A stretch of DNA of 64,000 bases from positions 24,862,001 through 24,926,000 of the forward strand of contig OX597820.1 in NCBI GenBank assembly GCA_951406725.2, in the 5' to 3' direction. Below, one piece after another: positions 4,575-62,790 of the stretch. Position numbers and translations under genes: made by a program. The DNA comes from Octopus vulgaris. Lineage: Eukaryota. Positions within the stretch are counted from its first letter, which is position 1. Each line of letters opens with the position of its first letter. The notes below the pieces were generated by a model, which worked only from the letters and a program-made list of their open reading frames with translations, searched no databases and was not told the DNA's origin.

Positions 4575-4958
4575 CAGCAGAATGCCATTAGATTGTCTAC
4601 AAAGGCCAAGATCTACAAGGCTGTATGTATTTCTAAGTATTCTGTGGATGTGAAATACGGATCCCATACTGCCGACACATGAAGCAGCTGGAACAGTTTC
4701 ACACTAGGGCACTACGCAGGACCATGGGGTATTCGCTGGCAGAACAGAGTGACAAACCAAAAAGTGTTGGACAGAAATGGTTCAACAAGACTCCATTACG
4801 CTGGACTGGTCACGTCATAAGAATGACTGACAACCATGTCCCCAGACAGCTGTTGCACGGCGAGCTGACGCAAGGCTCAACCAAACAAGGAAAGCCTACT
4901 CTGGGGTACAAGGACACCCGAAAAATCAATCTCGAATGGAACGGCATTAGTCACCGTG
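4575..4958 (+). mobile_element. RTE-clade LINE reverse transcriptase C-terminal fragment (pseudogene)
   Basis: IRLSTKAKIYKAVC..GCE..Y.RHMKQLEQFHTRALR..LRWTGHVIRMTDNHVPRQLLHGEL..G...QGKP is a typical RTE/BovB ORF2 end, with frameshifts. Confidence 0.85.
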
Positions 4959-5019
4959 AACATGATGCATGTGTGTATGTGTGTGCATATATATACATAC
5001 GCACACGTACATGTAAATA

Positions 5020-5245
<226 letters not shown>

Positions 5246-7850: not shown

Positions 7851-8375
7851 GAGTATCTCAACAGGCACGATAGAGCTGCACAATATATTCACTGGGTAAT
7901 CTGTAAAAACCTGGATTTGCCCCATGAAAAAAACTGGTGGGAACACAAACCACCCCCAGTGCTTGAAAATGACCACATCTCACTCCTCTGGAACTTCACC
8001 ATTCAAACTGACAGGAAGATAGATGCAAATAGGCCAGACATCATATTGAAAAACTTCAAACAAAGAACATGCCTCCTCATTGATATGACTGTCCCAATCG
8101 ATATAAACGTATCTGTCAAGACCTACCAAAAACTGAGCAAATATAAAAATCTTGAAATAGAAATCAGCAAAATGTGGAAGCTGAAGACTAAAACAATACC
8201 TGTTGTCATAGGTGCCCTGGGAATGATAGCAAAAGGGGCTGATAGCTACCTAACTCAGATACCAGGAAACCCAAAAATGGCAGAAGTTCAAAAGATAGTG
8301 CTCATGGGAACTGCTCATATCCTACGCAAAATACTCTCTATGTAATCTCAAGGTTTAAAACAAACATAATTTTCG

Positions 8376-12101: not shown

Positions 12102-12271
12102 AGTGGCTGTGTGGTAAGTAGCTTGCTTACCAACCACATGATTCTGGGTTCAGTTCCATTGCGTGGCACCTTGGGCAAGTGTCTTCTACTAATAGCCTCG
12201 AGCCGACCAAAGCCTTGTGAGTAGATTTGGTAGACGGAAACTGAAAGAAGCCCGTCGTATGTATGTATATG

Positions 12272-12312
<41 letters not shown>

Positions 12313-12525
12313 TTGTGTGTCTGTGTTTATCTCCCCCCAACATCGCTTGACAACCGATGCTGGTGTGTTTACGTCCCCGTAACTTAGCGGTTCGGCAAAA
12401 GAGAATAAGTACTACGCTTACAAAGAATAAGTTCTGTGGTCGATTTCTTCGATTTAAAGGCGGTGCTCCAGCATGGCCGCAGTCAAATGACTAGAACAAG
12501 TAAAAGAGAAAAAGAGTAAAGAGTA
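12102..12525 (+). mobile_element. Family-B SINE (tRNA-like head, internal TA/TG microsatellite), full length
   Basis: agtggctgtgtggtaagtagcttgcttaccaaccacatg.ttc.gggttcagt.cca.tgcgtggcaccttgggcaagtgtcttctact...ggaaactgaaagaagcccgtcg(TA/TG)n...catcgcttgacaaccgatgctgg...ggcggtgctccagcatggccgcagtcaaatgact. Confidence 0.9.
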
Positions 12526-15884: not shown

Positions 15885-16046
15885 GACGCAGGAGCAGCTG
15901 TGCGGTAAGTAGTTTGCTTACCAACCACATTGCTCCGGGTTCAGTTCCACTGCGTGACACCTTTGGCAAGTGTCTTCTGCTGTAGCTCCAGGCCGACCAA
16001 AGCCTTGTAAGTGGATTTGGTAGACGGAAACTGAAAGAAGTCCGTC

Positions 16047-16093
<47 letters not shown>

Positions 16094-16218
16094 CGCTCTT
16101 GTCCTCCCACCATCACTTGACAACCGATATTGTCGTGTTCACGTCCCCGTAACTTAGCGGTCGGTTCGGCAAAAGAGACCGATAGAATAAGTACTAGGCT
16201 TACAAAGAATAAGTCCTA
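15885..16218 (+). mobile_element. Family-B SINE, 3'-truncated
   Basis: Matches the family-B consensus. Confidence 0.88.
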
Positions 16219-19063: not shown

Positions 19064-19663
19064 AAATATATACATATACATATACATATAAAGTATGCAT
19101 ATATGCGTACACATATGCTGCATTTACATATCAATAGACTCCTTGAGTGTATATGTGTGTATGCGTAACTATAAATACATAAACGAGATAGCAATCACGG
19201 AAAAGACTATGAATTGTGATAGAGAAAATTAAATCCTCCCACGCACATACGCAAAAACTATGAACAAATGAATAAATTCATTAACATTCCACACGTAGTG
19301 GCTTTATATCCAATACAGCTGCCCAACGGTGTATCAATAAAGAATGACTATATATCAATTTGACATGTAAACGTCATTAAGCAAGCAATCTATGCATCTG
19401 ATGACGTAATATCCGTGGATATGGATGTGGAAACATGGCTATGCTGTCGCTTGCAGAAACAGTTCAGATCAACCAGAAAAATATCAGTGGGCAAAAAATT
19501 AATTGATGAAAAATAGTTAGGATGTCGGTGATGTAGTTGCATAACAAGTGGCCTGATCTGAGATCGTGTGCTGGAATGAAAACAATTGCAGCGTGGAAGG
19601 TGTTTATAAGCCATTTAAGAAACACACAAAAACCGTTAGATTCACTTCAACATTTAAATTTAA

Positions 19664-19714
19664 TTTGTCAAAATATTTTCTTCGCTTTGAGACCGCGACC
19701 TGTTCACTCACAAA
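19664..19714 (-). ncRNA. Minimal type I hammerhead-ribozyme-like motif with a G3/C8 swapped core
   Basis: Minus strand: TTTGTGA-GTGAACA-G-GTCGC-ggtctcaaa-GCGAA-GAAA-ATATTT-TGACAAA. Stem I pairs 6 of 7, stem II is TCGC/GCGA, helix III is the palindrome AATATT. Confidence 0.55.
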
Positions 19715-21378
19715 ACTTCGTGCTGCGTATTAGGATGTCAGATACAATAAACGATAAAGAAGACGACGATAGAATAAATATATCTAGTGACACCAAACAG
19801 ATTTCTCCACCCGCCCAAATAAAAGCAGGTACTAAGATAATACTGCTTTAATAACAGTAGGTATATTACGGTTATCGGCCAATAAGTAGGTAACATCTCA
19901 CGAATTATCCAATAAAAGTTCAATGGAGCGATCAAAAAGGCATGCTTAAACAAATCTACAACAGTATTACGTAATCGGATATTCACTGGTGCCCTTCAGA
20001 GGGATCAAGAATTATTTGTACAATTGGCATTATATTAAATATAGATATTCGAAGTATCCCTTCCCTAGACTGTATCTATGTATCAAGCAAAAATGTGAAT
20101 CTAAAATTACGTATTTATACACCTAACCATCAGCAGTAGATAATAAGGTATATGGTGTGAGAGCGTTATTGTCTTCTATGCTCGCTGCTATTGACACAAA
20201 TTTTTTTAAATTTCCAAAGCACCATGGCAGCTATAGAAAACTTGTTAATTTTTTTTTATTAAGCATTCTTTTGTTTAATAGAATTTTGAGCCATAAAATA
20301 GTCCAGGTGTTCGACTATTATATGTTCTTTCAAAAGCATTACATTATATTTTATTAAAAAATCTACGACATACTTAGATACTCTTTGCAGTGTACGATTT
20401 GAGAGACATTGATCTAGAGAAACCGGCTGTAATAAGGAAATCGACCAAAGAGACAAAACAATCGAAGAATTGGCCAATGATATAGGACAACGCGATAATA
20501 ATTAAAAAGATATCGCTCTGAAAAAAATAATCAAATTTGGCTGCTATTTCCAGAGGACCGAAAGACAGTCGTGTCAGCTCTCACATTAATCCGTTGTATT
20601 TATTTCTCTCTTGTGTGCAGTTGTTTTCCCTGTCAATTTAATTGAACGCTGTTTGTTTTCTTTCTGTTTTTTTCGTTAATATTCCGTTATGCTCTTATTG
20701 TAACCAGTACATACATACACGCATGCAAATTTAAGCACAGTATGTAGACGCATACGTACACACACACACACACACACATATACATGTATGTATGTATATG
20801 TATACATATTTTTCTCTCGTTAAGACAGCTGCATTTGAAAGCAAATAAAATATCAGCACTTTCTGCTTGATATTGATTCCTTCAGGCAACTCTTGCAAAC
20901 TTTCCAAGATGCACTCATTTTCTTTCGTGCATTACTTACAGCTGTACTTCCCGTAGCCCAGCAAAGAACGATAACAACCACCATCATCCATTACAGCTAA
21001 TATCACTGCTTTTTAGGCTTGTGGTTTTACTGGATATCACACACACCTTAAAGTCTCGCATTTTCTTGGAGCAAGTGACATTATAATGTAAATAACTGTA
21101 ACTGACTTTCTTACAGATCATATGAGTGTATACAATTTATTATTTTATTTTTGTATCTGTGTGTGTGTGAAAATTAGAAGAAATATATGAGAAAGGCGGA
21201 TAAAGAAAAGACGAAATAGATAAATAAATGGCAGCGAAATACCAAATCAGGTTAGACATGTTGTTTAATGGATGTTTAAGAACAACCCGAGGCAAGGTTT
21301 TTGGTTTTATGCTTCGGTCATGTGTATTCGGCGTTTATACATACAAACATACATACACACACACAAACACACACACAA

Positions 21379-21418
<40 letters not shown>

Positions 21419-21680
21419 ACACACACACATACACACGCATACATGTATATATAGGCGCAAGAGTGGCTATGTCGTAAGAAGCTTGTTTCCAAGCCACATG
21501 GTTCCGGGTTCATGTATATATATATATTTTGTGAAATAGAAAGATGAATAATCTTGTTGCAGATTAATCAAAAGTTTAACCGATACCTTGGTAGCAAAAA
21601 TCACAGCAGAAGACAGCACGGTTGGAGGTACAACCATATGGTGTTGCAACCGTGTGTTGGTGCGGATAATTGAATTTTAA

Positions 21681-21832
21681 TATTATTAGTGAATTGAAGA
21701 AATGGAGTTGAACGAAGATTGAACAGAAATCGGAATTTGGTAAATTGTGCCTTTCGAAACACGTGTAGAATGCAATAAAACGATTTCTGTTCAATCTTCG
21801 TTCAACTCCATTTCTTCAATTCACTAATAATA
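21681..21832. repeat. Perfect 52-bp inverted repeat with a 48-bp spacer
   Basis: 21681-21732 is the reverse complement of 21781-21832. Confidence 0.95.
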
Positions 21833-21858
21833 TATATATATATATATACATTTACATG

Positions 21859-25441: not shown

Positions 25442-26708
25442 GAGAGGTAAGAGGGACCGATAGAATAAGTACTAGGCTTACAAACAATAAGTTCTCGGGT
25501 CGATTTCTTCGACTAACACCCTTTAAGGTGGTGCTCCAACATGGCCGCAGTCAAATGACTGAAACAAGTAAAAAAGCAAAATAATATATCCTTACAGTTT
25601 GTGGTCGGGTGAAATACATGCTATGCTCTTTTTTTTAAATAATTGAATATTTATTTAATTCCCTGTGTATTCATCAGCTCTGTAACTAGAATGCGTATTG
25701 ATTGATAATTCTGTCTAGCTGTTTATCGACCGTGCCTAAACGGGTATGTTTACCATAAAAACAATAATCAGAGCGAGCTATCTTTTTTTTTTTTTTTTGC
25801 AAATCTTTACGATTCCATGGTTATATGAATGGGGTGAATACCATTTCCTAATGAGAAGTATTATATTGGACTTGCACTTTTATTACAGCGGTAATTAATT
25901 TGTTGAGTTTAATGTTTTATTGTGGAATGTTATCTTTCTTAATTTTGATAAATTTTGCTCTTATCGTTTATCATATTCATAATTCTTTTTTGCAAAATAT
26001 TCACCTTTGTCCGCGATAAAAAATTAATTATTTTTGCCACTTTTAAACATAACGATTTTACTGTTCATAAGATCATGTAGAGTTTGTATAAGTTTGATGT
26101 TACAAAATTCTTGTATGTGTGTGAATGTATGTGTGTGTATGTGAGTGTGCGCGTTTGTGTGTCTGCGTTTGCGAATGTGTGTGTGCCCCTGTTTCCTTCT
26201 TTTGATCCAGTAACAACAAATAATTACATATATAATAATCAGCATGAATCAAATACGTTCCAGTTATTAGCATAAAGTATTAATTAGGAAATTTATTTAA
26301 AAATCTGTAACACTAATTAAATACTAAATTAGTTCAATTCTAACTACTCGGCGTAACGTTACGTCGAGAATTAAGGATTTGACAAAGCCCTTCTTTCACC
26401 TGAGGACGTAGCATTGTTTTTAAAAGATTTTTTTTTTTTGAATTTTGCATAAATGCAGACTTGTAATCAATTTATTTATTATTAAACATAATAATATATA
26501 TTATCCTTACATGCTTTAAGTCACGAAACAATTTGTCGTAATATTTGAATTTTTTGTTGTTAAACAAATTTTCATCATAATAATTCTGTCATTTATAACT
26601 CTACGCACTCCTTATCGTTTTCTCTTGTATAGTTATCAGTACTACCTAATTACTTGAATCCTGTGTATGTGTGTGTATGTATGTGTTTATGTGTGTGTGT
26701 ATCTGTGT

Positions 26709-26781
<73 letters not shown>

Positions 26782-26908
26782 TGATGTTTGTGTGTACACA
26801 TTGCTTAGAGCACAAGGAGAGACAGCAAGAAAGAGAGAGAAAGAAATTAAATAATGCGCATAACAATACAATGCATTTATCTTTAATTATATTTTATTCT
26901 CATTTCAG

Positions 26909-28124
26909 AACCCAAAAAGCTGAAATGTACGGTTTGACCAGTGAAATAACACAAATTCAGAGAAAGGAAAACCCGAATACATTTCGTTATTCTGATTCCA
27001 ATCAATGTTCTCCACCAATTGATATTAATGAGAAAACGAAAGAAACAAGCGTGGCCGAAGCTAGTGCCTCAACGTCCGATAAAAACATTCAACCGACCGT
27101 TCATCACGGTCAAACGGCCAATAGCTCTTTCATATCTGGATTAAGCGATAAGACGAAAGAATCTCCACTCAACGAGGAACACATTCTTATTAACGTTTTG
27201 AACACAGAGAAAACACCAAAGAGTGGTATAGAAAACCCAGCATTTTTGAATCGTGACTCAGACGAGAAGAATTTAGCCAAACGAACTGCATTGATTGAAA
27301 AGCAAGACGATGATAAAGAAGGCAACGAAGCAATCCATGAGCAGCAACAGCAGGAGCAGCCACAGCGCGAACAAAACAGCAGCAACAGTGGCAGCATTAG
27401 AAATAGTGGTGCTCGATGTAAAGTGAATGTAAATGTGCCCACTCGTGTAGATTCCCCATCATCTTCGTTGAGTTCTTACAGGAAACAATCCCGTCGACGC
27501 TGCAATGAAAGCCTCGACGAAATAGACAGGGTCGTTTTTCGCAACAAGGACGATGTTCATCGCACGGTTCTCGGTGCTGAAAGGTTAATGTACGGTGGTT
27601 GCGGCAGTAATGACGATGTTTCAAGAGAATCGGAGATTGGGAACGAAGTCATCGAATACGACGCCGGCGTTTTGTCGAGCAGCGATGAGTGGGAGCTGGG
27701 AAACCAATCGAGTGCGAACTCCAGCCAAAGCAGTGTGTTTGCTACGACGGTAAGACTTGAAAACGTGTCCGACTGGTCGGCATGTGGTGAAACCGTCTCT
27801 ACGGGAAGTAGTAAGAGCGGATCGAAAGACAGTGCCTCCGCGTTGTTGGGCGTGCCCCCGTCTGAGTATTACAAGCGATCGTTGAAAATGAAGGACAACC
27901 GAGTAAAGTCAACAATACGGCGCCACGCCCTACGAGGGGTGCGTCCTTTACTCCCTGCTTCTATGATTGACGAGTGCACGATAGAGGCACTGTCCAAGGA
28001 AGACCTTCTAGTCATGTGGAAATCGTCAGAGATCGAACTCCAGAAGAAACTCGGTGAAGTTATGGAGCAAAAAGAAAAGCTAAAACGCCTCATTGAAAAA
28101 CATACGGATCATACAGAACTTTAG
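26909..28124 (+). CDS. Large terminal coding exon of an unidentified host protein (Ser/Glu/Gln-rich disordered region, C-terminal coiled coil)
   Basis: About 405 uninterrupted codons with raised GC in an AT-rich context. Polypyrimidine tract plus ttcag acceptor ends at 26908 (an in-frame ATG at 26925 is an alternative start). Amphipathic end IEALSKEDLLVMWKSSEIELQKKLGEVMEQKEKLKRLIE, stop TAG at 28122-28124. Confidence 0.85.
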
Positions 28125-35304: not shown

Positions 35305-35975
35305 AAAGTGGCTGTGTGGTAAGTAGGCGCAGGAGTGACTGTATAGTAAGTAGCTTGCTTACCAACCACATGGTTCTGGGTTCAGTCCCACTACGTGCAC
35401 CTTGGGCAAGTGTCTTCGACTATAGCCTCGGCCCACCAAAGCCTTGTGAGTGGATTTGGTAGACGGAAACTGAAAGAAGCCCGTCGTATATATGTATATA
35501 TACGTGTGAATGTGTGTGTTTGTTTGTGCGTCAGTGTTTGTCCTCCAAAATCGCTTGACAACCGATGCTGGTGTGTTTACGTCCCCGTAACTGAGCGGTT
35601 CGGCAAAAGAGACCGATAGAATAAGTACTAGGCTTACAAAGAATAAGTCCTGGGCTCGATTTCTTCGACTAAAGGCGGTGCTCCAGCATGGCTGGAGTCA
35701 AATGACTGAAACAAGTAAAAGAGTAAAGAAAAAGCGAATTACTGATAAATGCAAATTAAGCCGGCGAACTAGCAGGATCGTTAGCACTCTGGACAAACAA
35801 TACTTAGCAGCATTTAGTCCGAATGTACGTTCTGAGTTCAAATTCCAGCCAGGTCGACTTGGTTTTTTATCTTTTCGGGTTCGATAAAATAAGTAATAGT
35901 TAGTCGTTAGAGTCGATGTAATCGGCTTACCCACTTCCTGCGAACTTGCTGGCCTGGTAACAAAATTTGAAATCA
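35305..35975 (+). mobile_element. Full family-B SINE (35305-35730) followed by a family-A SINE (35760-35975)
   Basis: Consensus matches to both families. Confidence 0.88.
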
Positions 35976-39728: not shown

Positions 39729-39808
<80 letters not shown>

Positions 39809-39809
<1 letters not shown>

Positions 39810-40067
39810 GGAGATGTACTCGCATAGCAAGTAATTTGATCTGAGATCGTGTGCTGAAACGAAAACAATTGCAGCGTGGAAGGTGTTTATAAGCCATTTA
39901 AGAAACACACAAAAGCCGTTCGATTCACTTCAACATTTAAGTTTAATTTGTCATTAATTTGTCATTTAATTTGTCATGACAAATTAAACTTAAATGTTGA
40001 AGTGAATCGAACGGCTTTTGTGTGTTTCTTAAATGGCTTATAAACACCTTCCACGCTGCAATTGTTT
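39809..40067. mobile_element. Fold-back copy of the 19527-19670 element inserted in (TA)n, with perfect 91-bp arms
   Basis: 39863-39953 is the exact reverse complement of 39977-40067. The spacer is two extra copies of (t)ttaatttgtca. Confidence 0.92.
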
Positions 40068-40297
40068 ATATATATATATATAGATGGGATCATGGGTGTG
40101 TAGGCGCAGGCATGGCCCCGTGGTTAAGAAGCTTGCCTTGCGACCATGTGGTTTCTGTTTCTGTCTGACTGCATGCCACATTAAGTAAGTGTCGTCTACT
40201 TTAATCTCGGGCCGACCAATTTTTTGTGAGTGGACATGAAAGACGGAAACAATGCAAAAAGTAGTCGTTTTCAAGTACTGAATCAACCTGCTTTAAA

Positions 40298-49847: not shown

Positions 49848-52520
49848 TATATCCTGTGCAGTCACAGGCAGTTCGTGGTTAACATTAGTCATAATACTTT
49901 TTTATTTCATTTTCTGCCTGCAGTGCAGTTGTCACGGGTTCCGTATTTTGGGGAATTAGTCTCGATAGACAGTCCGCATGACCAATTTTTTCGATGGAAT
50001 ATACAGCATTTTGAAATTGTAATTTAGTAACATTATACTCCAACGTTGTAGTCGGTTCGCTGTATGGGTAGGTAAGCCTTTCTTTGACCCACAAATTGAT
50101 AGCAATGGTCGACGATCTGTTTGTAACAGAAAACTTGCACCATGTAGAAACTTGTGACATTTTTTCACAGCAAAGATAATCGATAGGACTTCTTTTTCTA
50201 TCTGACTGTATTTTTTCTCTGCCGCTATCAGCGAGCACGAAACATGAATCACTGGTTTCATATTTCCATCTTTATACTTGTGTAGCAAAACAATGTTCAT
50301 TTCAGAATCGAAATACGCTTGAGACAAATCTGCGATTAGAATTTTTTTTTGTTGCTTCAAAGGCATTTTGGCATTTAACAACCAATTCCACATTACTTCC
50401 TTTTTTTAATAAGTCATTCAATGGAGCTCTTAATTTGTGCAGGTTAGGAATGTAGTTTTGGTAGTAGTTTGCCGGCCCAAGAAACGATTATAATGTTGGT
50501 ATATTTATCGGAGCAGGCTTATTTTTTATTGCGCCTGCCCTCGACGAGTCAGGCCGTCTACCATTTTTATCAATTATTTGCCCTAAGTACCTAATTTGAG
50601 GCAAAAAGAATTCTTACTTTTCTTCACTCAAAGTGAACCCGAACTCTAATTTTCTTGAACACAGCTTATGCTCCACATATGCTCCACATATTGTTCACGT
50701 GAATTACTTTTAATCAATATATCGTCCAAATAAAAGATTGCAAATTCACTATCAGATAACATAGCATCCATGATTTGTTGAAATATTGCCGGCGCAACCT
50801 TTAATCTAAAAGGTAACCGGGTATATCTGTACAATGCTCTACGTGTGTTTATTGTCAGATACTTTGAGTATTTGGCATTTGCTTTATTCTGTAAATAAGC
50901 GTCAGACAGATCCAATTTGTAGAACATTTTTCCACCATTTAAATTTTGCGAAAATGTCCTCTGGAGTCGGGAGTGGATGGTGGCATGTCTTTAAGCAGTC
51001 TTTCAGTTCTGTAGAGAAATCGGCACGCAGCCTAATGTTATTATTTTTCTTTTTACTGCACACCGTAGGCGCCGCTCATTTAGAGTAACCCACCTTTTTG
51101 ATAATTCCACCCTTTTCCAGTCTGTCCAACTTTCCATTTAGGTACATCGTTTTCACTTACTTGAAAGCAGGCTATAGTCTTTTTACATAGATCTCAGTCC
51201 TCCGATAGTACTTGAGAAAACATCTTTTTCAATTTTCTCTTCAATTCCTCAGACGATTTATTTTTAACGAGACAATCATTTATGTTTTTGAAGTAGAGTT
51301 ATAAGTCATATAACTCCAACCAATCTGAACAAAACAGATTGATTGTTTTCTCCACTATGAATATTTTTGCTTCGCGTGTTTCTCCTGGAAATGTGACAGA
51401 CGTCACATTTCGCCCATGAAATGTAATTTATCACCCGTCACGCCGTGCACAATTTTCGCTGTTTCCCGATTTTTTCCGTGTATTCGCATTTATGATTGAA
51501 ATATCACTACCCGTATCCAACTGTAGTTTACACCATTTATTTTTACGTGTACGAATTTTCTCGTCTTTGTGTCGCATTCACTTTTTGCTGAAACCCCTTA
51601 GAACTTTTTGCTTTCGATCCTCGTAATCTTGTCCTGCAGTGTGAGCTCTTGTTACCAAGTTTCTGACAACTATAGAATTTTCGGTTTTTAAACGGACAGT
51701 CTTTTCTGAAGTGTAGGCCTCCACATCCGTAACATGGATTGGGGCCTGACACTATTTTTTGGTGTACTTTCCGGGTCGACACATCTGTATTTTTGCAGAA
51801 TCTTTCTCTTGAATTTTTCTTCACGTCCTACTTCAGGTTTATCATTGTTTTAAGTCTTGGTTTGCTTGCTCCATTTTTGAGAGAATATTTGTCCGAATTT
51901 TTCTATCTTCTGTTGCCGTAAGGTATTGTACGACGATAAGGGATTTAAACATATCCTGAATGAGTTCCTGAAGTTTAAAGTTTTCACACATACAGTTGAC
52001 TACAAGTTAGGTTCTAACACTTCATTCGAATGTTAAATAACAAACTTTTATCACAAAAGATCATTGAGAGAAATTCAATAGTTTCTTGGAAACAAATCTC
52101 ACTCGACTTTTTGGGCAAAATAAAGTTATAGTAGCGTTCATGCTCAGCCGGAGCTACCTTGCGTAGTAATAGCCTCACTTTCCCTTTATCCGACCATTAC
52201 TTGCAATCTGTGTTAAAACTTTCCTCGTACCTTCTATAGTACGCAGGAGACGTAATACTCTCCTCCGGATTATAAGTAGTTTCAGAAATTGAGTTCGCCA
52301 CACCGTCTGGCGTAAACGAAGTTACAAAATTTTCAGATTTCCTTGATTGTAACTCATTTAACTGTCGTTGTTGTTGTTGTTATAATATTTGTTTCTGCAA
52401 ATCCTGTAGTTGTTCCTGTTGCTTCTCTTGAAGCTGTATTACTGTAGCTAATAGGTTCTCCATAATTTATCAACTTGTATGATGCACAAATTGTAAAATA
52501 ATCTACGTGAGCTTCGAAAA

Positions 52521-56855: not shown

Positions 56856-56910
56856 ATGTTTGTTTTGTACACCACCTGTCTTCGTCTTTTGTTTTTTTTT
56901 CGTAAACTCT

Positions 56911-56960
<50 letters not shown>

Positions 56961-57137
56961 AGAATTCACAAAAAAAAAACAAAAGACGAAGACTGGTGGT
57001 GTAGACAACAAACAGATATATTAGTATGACGCTCAGGATGTGAAAAAGTCTTTAATGTTTCGAGCCTATGCTCTTCCACAGAAAGGAACACAGAAAGAAA
57101 CGAGAGAAAATAAAGAATGTGTAGTGGCTAGCGATCT

Positions 57138-62383: not shown

Positions 62384-62790
62384 AGGCGTAGGAGTGGCTG
62401 TGTGTTAAGTAGCTTGCTTACCTACCACATGGTTCCGGGTTCAGTCCCACTGTGTGGCACCTTGGGTAAGTGTCTTCTACTATAGCCTCGGGCCGACCAA
62501 AGTCTTGTGAGTGGACTTGGTAGATGGAAACTGAAAGAAGCCCGTCGTATATATATATATACATATATGTGTGTGTTTGTGTGTCTGTGTTTGTCTCCCC
62601 AGCATCGCTTGACAACCGATGCTGGTGTGTTTACGTCCCCGTAACTGAGCGGTTCGGCAAAAGAGACCGATAGAATAAGTACTAGGCTTACAAAGAATAA
62701 GTCCTGGGGTCGATTTGCTCGACTATAGACGGTGCTCCAACATGACCGCAGTCAAATGATGAAACAAGTAAATGAGTAAAGAGAAAAAGA
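62384..62790 (+). mobile_element. Family-B SINE, full length
   Basis: End-to-end consensus match. Confidence 0.92.

Follow-up and report, generated by a model that had tools for sequence, protein, structure and literature searches.

The hairpin copy

What made an inverted copy of a short repeat turn back on itself exactly at the predicted cleavage site of a hammerhead ribozyme? This question is raised by a hairpin insertion in the window, the whole 64,000-nt stretch of Octopus vulgaris DNA that was analysed. The initial annotation proposed that the 5′ end of the RNA template was made by ribozyme self-cleavage, and that a Penelope-type reverse transcriptase (RT) reached this end, reiterated it in a telomerase-like way, and switched to its own cDNA for the inverted arm. 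The analysis favours another answer. The insertion is probably a two-armed copy of a repeat of ~208 nt, in which a Penelope-type RT primed from both (TA)n ends on one RNA and the two cDNAs were end-joined, its stop at the cut site being chance.

The described anatomy of the copy is confirmed almost throughout. The stretch 39809-39953 is 91% identical to 19526-19670 (132/145, gap-free), and the arm stops where it was said to stop. TTAATTTGTCA begins at three points (39943, 39954, and 39966), which accounts for the two extra terminal units of 11 and 12 nt at 39954-39976. The 91 nt of 39977-40067 are a perfect reverse complement of 39863-39953, and (TA)n lies on both sides. The right end at 40067 is also correct, but the left end shifts from 39809 to 39807, where the element begins. 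No target-site duplication is resolvable at this copy in the flanking microsatellite. Element positions (el) are numbered on a real copy, L009, with el1 at window position 39807 and el147 at 39953, which corresponds to 19670. The plus strand is read as cDNA sense, and the RNA would be the minus strand. The features are listed in Table 1.

Table 1. Coordinates of the hairpin copy, the second copy, and the predicted hammerhead in the window
Feature	Position	Strand
Left flank, (TA)n target microsatellite	39772..39806	none
Tailed arm, el1-147, 'G' subfamily	39807..39953	+
One-sided ~56-nt 'tail' (el1-56) between two putative reverse-transcription start sites	39807..39862	+
First direct reiteration of the arm end, 11 nt (el137-147)	39954-39964	+
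Second direct reiteration of the arm end, 12 nt (el136-147)	39965-39976	+
Inverted arm without tail, el147 back to el57	39977..40067	-
Right flank, (AT)n target microsatellite	40068..40082	none
Second copy, near full-length, single arm, 'A' subfamily	19526..19726	-
Predicted minimal type-I hammerhead in the second (19.6-kb) copy, from sequence, features per PMC4209133	19664..19714	-
Predicted stem I	19708-19714 paired with 19664-19670	-
Predicted core G3-A9, G3-C8 variant; extra G	19701-19707; 19700	-
Predicted stem II	19695-19699 paired with 19681-19685	-
GAA; palindromic AAUAUU; U17	19678-19680; 19672-19677; 19671	-
Predicted cut	between 19671 and 19670	-

Inverted pairs and arm starts

The combination of an inverted copy and a tail is a known signature of Penelope-like elements (PLEs) (PMC8557442, PMC3846280). 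Among 157 inverted pairs taken from pattern-selected loci, whose proportions are not genome-wide, 114 have one start at el<=15 and the other at el50-68, and the lower start is el1 in 102. The two arms of a pair differ at 27 of 407 subfamily sites, compared with a background of 311/7,656 and with 36-49% under random pairing. A common RNA or source gene is therefore the likely origin of both arms. Frequent origin of the arms from different RNAs was rejected on this near-background discordance, with single mixed cases in L161, L168, and L081. Target duplications outside microsatellites measure 8-16 bp, mostly 12-13, and were found in 32/97 pairs, and a microsatellite directly follows 104 of the 177 tail ends. 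Several marks of a PLE-mobilised repeat are present, namely an inverted 5′-truncated arm, a one-sided tail, AT-rich or (TA)n targets, and variable duplications. The claimed Penelope-like context is borne out, and the ~208-nt repeat likely moves with Penelope-type enzymes.

The two arm starts, the agreement within pairs, and the target duplications fit priming at two ends. Such priming is seen in vitro for the Anolis Poseidon element PAc, in which the PLE tail is delimited by two internal RT starts (PMC11167929). The ribozyme is dispensable there: insertion is normal with ribozyme mutants, and none of the RNA reads stops at the cut. In the octopus family, a GIY-YIG endonuclease would nick both target strands ~12 nt apart, and each target 3′ end would prime at one of two start sites on the RNA (el1 and el~57). 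Both cDNAs would head for the RNA 5′ end, usually passing through the uncut ribozyme to el~205. For the hairpin copy, both would have halted at el147, perhaps on an RNA that was broken there, that stalled synthesis, or that had, as an occasional event, cut itself. This would have left two blunt cDNA ends without complementarity, and after two rounds of slip-back synthesis the RT or an end-joining pathway of the polymerase-theta type would have joined them.

Two arrangements of arms point to spread as a passenger. One inverted-pair junction (el181 to el~201) is identical at many loci, for example G000:C1:4383200, 5023938, and 19952270, and L079, so this pair has spread within another repeat. 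In L033, L266, L417, and L418, tail-less arms are followed by a shared ~25-nt extension and (TATG)n, which is a second passenger arrangement.

The repeat family and the search for an autonomous partner

Matches to a 19-nt anchor give at least 7,398 arms in the 2.8-Gb assembly of 227 contigs. The family has two main subfamilies, 'A' and 'G', and the hairpin, which is one of thousands of copies with two arms, belongs to G. The right ends of arms cluster at el~205-210. Most words of the repeat are present in runs labelled with four organisms, and contigs of four runs (presumed RNA) cover el1-205, resolving neither ends nor strand. ARAGORN finds no tRNA head in the 64-kb window. The hairpin is a tidy example of a known PLE insertion form, and no paper on the family itself was found in the literature searched; the supplementary motif lists of PMC4209133 and PMC8557442 could contain it.

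It is conceivable, though on balance rather doubtful, that the ~208-nt unit represents a solo pLTR, the 5′ stub of the mRNA of an autonomous PLE, and not a self-standing non-autonomous element. Copying of such a stub would begin at internal start sites and end at the start of transcription. An ATG on the RNA strand at el91 opens ~12 codons to el57 and 30 to el1, and this frame is open in 124/142 arms. It resembles the frame of Adineta Pen2a, with 12 amino acids, or 22 with the tail (PMC3846280), and the geometry resembles that of Anolis (PMC11167929). However, none of 177 distinct tail ends runs into a shared or PLE-like ORF, and none of 39 right-end extensions inspected by eye enters a shared coding continuation or any coding sequence. 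Similarity to a pLTR is also absent from 62 GIY-YIG stretches except as separate adjacent copies, and 4/6 subfamily codon changes in the el91 frame are non-synonymous. Autonomous PLE-like families bearing GIY-YIG are abundant (150 scored of 6,136 candidates). The terminus of the repeat is absent from the 62 stretches examined around GIY-YIG matches, and neither the GIY-YIG search nor flank continuation found an autonomous partner.

Several loci with GIY-YIG matches stand out. L385-L391 hold many near-identical intact frames of 781 aa that match GIY-YIG at the C-terminus. A further frame overlaps them on the upstream side, and their 3′ region is repetitive; they likely represent a recently active PLE family. 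L392:2083-4483 and 1321-2086 (G000:C14:47993500-47998800) belong to a young PLE-like family that bears GIY-YIG and forms inverted pairs on insertion, with arms 100% identical over 766 nt and relatives in L409-L412, L402, and L414. By eye, a motif resembling a hammerhead lies in its 3′ region near L392:4300-4345, where the core reads CCGAAGA and helix III is the palindrome GUAC. At L397:1846-2350 (G000:C8:100174000-100179500), a truncated arm of the ~208-nt repeat and a 3′ fragment from another GIY-YIG gene stand head to head across (TA)n, by chance or by mixed insertion.

The predicted hammerhead

Judged from its sequence, the minus strand of the family bears a predicted minimal type-I hammerhead with a G3-C8 core. 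The hammerhead core CUGANGA..GAAA..UH with its 3-8 pair is matched as the G3-C8 variant in 138/161 arms, and the motif also has an extra G, a G10.1-C11.1 pair, a palindromic AAUAUU, and U17. None of the 14 subfamily sites falls within the core or stems (p=0.03), and the subfamily changes include loop II. With regard to compensatory changes in the stems, the family is young and its subfamily changes spare both core and stems. Rfam returned no hammerhead among the 150 of 268 matches listed, only microsatellite-driven miRNA and snoRNA matches.

The initial annotation placed base 19670 first on the 3′ side of the scissile bond, and the predicted cut agrees with this. In the 19.6-kb copy itself, the motif is impaired by substitutions at 19681, which breaks stem II, and at 19709, which breaks stem I. 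Because of these two changes, free folding of this copy gives no ribozyme fold (z about +1), and the fold is visible only in intact family members. In the intact copy L009, RNAfold places stems I and II around an unpaired core at -14.5 kcal/mol.

The motif resembles the minimal PLE hammerheads (PMC4209133) in its extra base between 9 and 10.1, G10.1-C11.1 pair, and short palindromic helix III, and in its occurrence mostly as single motifs or opposite-strand pairs. It differs in the predicted G3-C8 pair and helix I of 7-8 bp, whereas the described motifs have C3-G8 or U3-A8. In PAc, G3-C8 is an engineered double mutant in which cleavage is partly rescued (PMC11167929), while here it is the natural state of the family. 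No natural G3-C8 PLE hammerhead was found in the literature searched.

Breakpoints around the predicted cut

Cleavage by PLE hammerheads during transposition is stated to be an open question (PMC8557442, PMC11167929), and a literature search found no paper on PLE breakpoints at the ribozyme cut. The family is a natural test of hammerhead use with thousands of insertions, and its answer is mostly negative. Under the same trailing filter, 5,681 arms run past el147 and 97 have another next base, so that ~98% of arms reaching the predicted cut read through it. The 97 non-continuing rows comprise, by eye, 41 breaks, 15 joins at the 7-nt homology of stem I, 36 substitutions, and 5 others. Two control bases were chosen with an identical next letter. 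Counts by eye gave 30 breaks in 83 rows at el151, and 18 in the first 100 of 225 matches at el138 (about 40 genome-wide). The difference between el147 and el151 (41 versus 30) has p=0.24. A scripted recount of 30 loci per set gave 15 (+3), 9, and 7 breaks at el147, el151, and el138, respectively.

A scripted histogram of el135-156, covering the first 100 of 474 truncation-enriched matches, contains 75 breaks with a mean of 3.4 per base. Three of them are at el147 and 15 at el147-150 (p=0.39). The pattern filters behind this set and a G-subfamily set of 233 matches catch part of the breaks and depend on the partner offset, and the next-base counts at el147, el151, and el138 were run to offset this bias. 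Before counting, 25/100 read-through rows were dropped from the 474 set, and 15/100 such rows and 10 rows at el140 from the 233 set. In the G-subfamily set, the AAAATATTTT palindrome leads BLAST to extend partner ends too far, to el152. Several of the break counts were made by eye on printed rows. The commonest exact junctions are homology-guided arm joins, at stem I el147-el191 (15/97 rows) and at el156-el192 (11/100 rows).

A ribozyme-made template end is thus not the rule, as breakpoints are flat around the site and nearly all arms read through. The plot of breakpoints against the motif, put forward in the initial annotation as a check on its own reading, has no peak at el147 and speaks largely against that reading. 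About one arm in 100 stops at el147, so such a copy will be met by chance when many windows are scanned, and the stop of the hairpin copy at the predicted cut is probably chance. In pairs with one arm ending at el147, the partner passes el152 in 20/31 (two entries may be one locus), so a single cut RNA cannot have templated both arms.

Slip-backs and a possible cut-template minority

A genome-wide pattern search caught ten slip-backs around the el147 region, with 3 at el147, 5 at el148-150, 1 at el151, and 1 at el158. The three at el147 use an identical 11-nt unit and are found in the hairpin copy, L270, and L262. L270 has three extra whole units and a partial one, followed by a near-symmetric fold. 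The duplication in L262 is internal to a copy that continues past the ribozyme. Overall, slip-back ends occur at el123, 129, 130, 143, 147, 148, 150, 151, and 158, and the unit length of 11-12 nt is the usual length of the target duplications.

There is a modest chance that self-cleavage affects a small part of the RNAs, for the most part those of the G subfamily, that both primings run off the cut end, that the RT re-copies 11-12 nt before the ends are joined, and that the hairpin copy is such a case. In the first 100 of 233 matches of the G subfamily, the furthest end reached by either arm is at el147 in 7/48 against 2.6 simulated (p=0.014), or p=0.039 without the hairpin copy, a post hoc result. 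The genome-wide counts by eye give 17 G breaks at el147 versus 8 and 4 at the controls (p=0.04). Symmetric or nearly symmetric hairpins of the forms 147/147, 147/146, and 147/145 occur in W39, L242, L042, L246, and L241/L270, all of them G. The slip-backs with the shared unit at el147, the five close by, the repeated units of L270, and the conserved motif also point in this direction.

Against this stands the stratification, which was post hoc with an uncorrected p of about 0.04, and el143 is equally high (8 furthest ends versus 3.8 simulated). The A subfamily has no excess (5 breaks versus 11 and 5), nor do the G single arms (7/75 at el147 versus 4.1 simulated, p=0.12). Symmetric hairpins also turn at 139, 142, 143, and 150, and the same 11-nt duplication is carried by the read-through copy L262. 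A control interval has 4 slip-backs of its own, and a single 10-nt unit is shared by L417, L418, and L420. Furthermore, cleavage by minimal hammerheads is inefficient and is not achieved by monomers (PMC4209133), and the copies of this family are dispersed and not tandem. A stricter version is slightly more doubtful again, namely that the G3-C8 hammerhead of the G subfamily cuts a small share of the RNA, that both primings run off the cut end, and that the RT re-copies the last 11-12 nt repeatedly, as in the hairpin copy and L270. If the G-subfamily excess is true, it would be in vivo evidence that a natural minimal hammerhead with G3-C8 cleaves. If reiteration at a cut end is true, the genome would hold a record of PLE ribozymes cleaving during transposition and of a telomerase relative adding repeats.

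Proposed copying of the first cDNA

The reading of the initial annotation, with telomerase-like reiteration at a ribozyme-made end and a switch of the RT to its own cDNA, is very unlikely. The arms of the hairpin copy are identical and turn at one base, a cDNA snap-back is described for R2 insertions (PMC11371274), and self-priming has been proposed for Penelope (PMC3846280). Nevertheless, in the 114 pairs with the two typical starts, the tail-less arm extends beyond the tailed arm in 60, falls short of it in 35, and ends level with it in 19, and the longer ones hold sequence that the first arm lacks. A copy of the first cDNA cannot outgrow it and gives no cause for the fixed stop at el~57, so in the family the first cDNA is not the template of the inverted arm. 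As a family mechanism, self-copying is largely refuted. The hairpin copy has identical and symmetric arms, so that it alone may have arisen by snap-back.

The telomerase-like part of the claim gains no specific support. Telomerase adds repeats from a template that offers a realignment match. Here the sequence before el137 is AAGT, with no match to the arm end GTCA, and is thus not a telomerase-type template. Neither a fixed template boundary nor a realignment region was found, and similar duplications occur elsewhere and inside read-through copies. Repeated realignment by polymerase theta makes direct templated insertions (PMC9962433).

A fold-back assembly artefact has virtually no place among the explanations: the 91-bp palindrome is perfect and the assembly is rich in repeats, but the junction is spanned by short-read contigs of two studies (run X1, which may be the source sample, over 39937-39994; run X2, from another study and sample, over 39925-40005 at depth 31.9), and the genome has hundreds of comparable, diverged inverted pairs, so the hairpin is real.

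Comparison with known elements

The pair data argue that a PLE makes its inverted arm as another cDNA on the RNA template, begun at a second start site, and not as a self-copy. The template would usually be uncut RNA, which matches the single in vitro study.

Endonuclease-bearing PLE insertions (PMC8557442, PMC3846280) share with this family the head-to-head inverted arms with a tail on one arm only, the (TA)n targets, the target duplications, and the microhomology joins. The tail is ~56 nt here and 30-40 in those elements; in this family no ORF-bearing parent was found, and nearly all arms end by el~210.

PAc (PMC11167929) is similar in its two RT starts, ~120 and 177 nt 3′ of ribozyme stem II, its AT-rich targets, and its use of uncut RNA as the main template. 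Unlike the present family, PAc is autonomous and has C3-G8.

Non-LTR retrozymes (PMC7229834; bioRxiv 10.64898/2026.07.22.740005) are likewise short, non-coding, and PLE-related, with a type-I hammerhead. They are defined by tandem units, whereas the present family occurs as single or inverted copies, the unit of which starts ~60 nt upstream of the cut and not at the cut. Assignment to the non-LTR retrozymes, with tandem units cut and circularised at the ribozyme, was rejected on the single or inverted copies and the read-through of most arms.

Polymerase-theta insertions and R2 snap-back junctions (PMC9962433, PMC11371274) have comparable short direct flanking repeats at the end-join and repeated realignment. 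The insertions in the polymerase-theta review are 3-10 nt (PMC9962433), compared with 11-12 nt without microhomology in the hairpin copy.

Other sequences in the window

A dispersed repeat of ~410 bp has many copies in the window, including 12102-12520, 15887-16217, 35325-35733, and 62384-62786. Further inverted-repeat structures are found at 56857-57014, centred on (TA)n, and at 21680-21833. The frames at 4637-5134 (+), 7851-8345 (+), and 49956-50405 (-) presumably resemble fragments of non-LTR and LTR retroelement genes. At 26658-28124 (+), there is a stop-to-stop frame of 488 codons, the 3′ part of which resembles a host exon with a terminal coiled-coil-like stretch.
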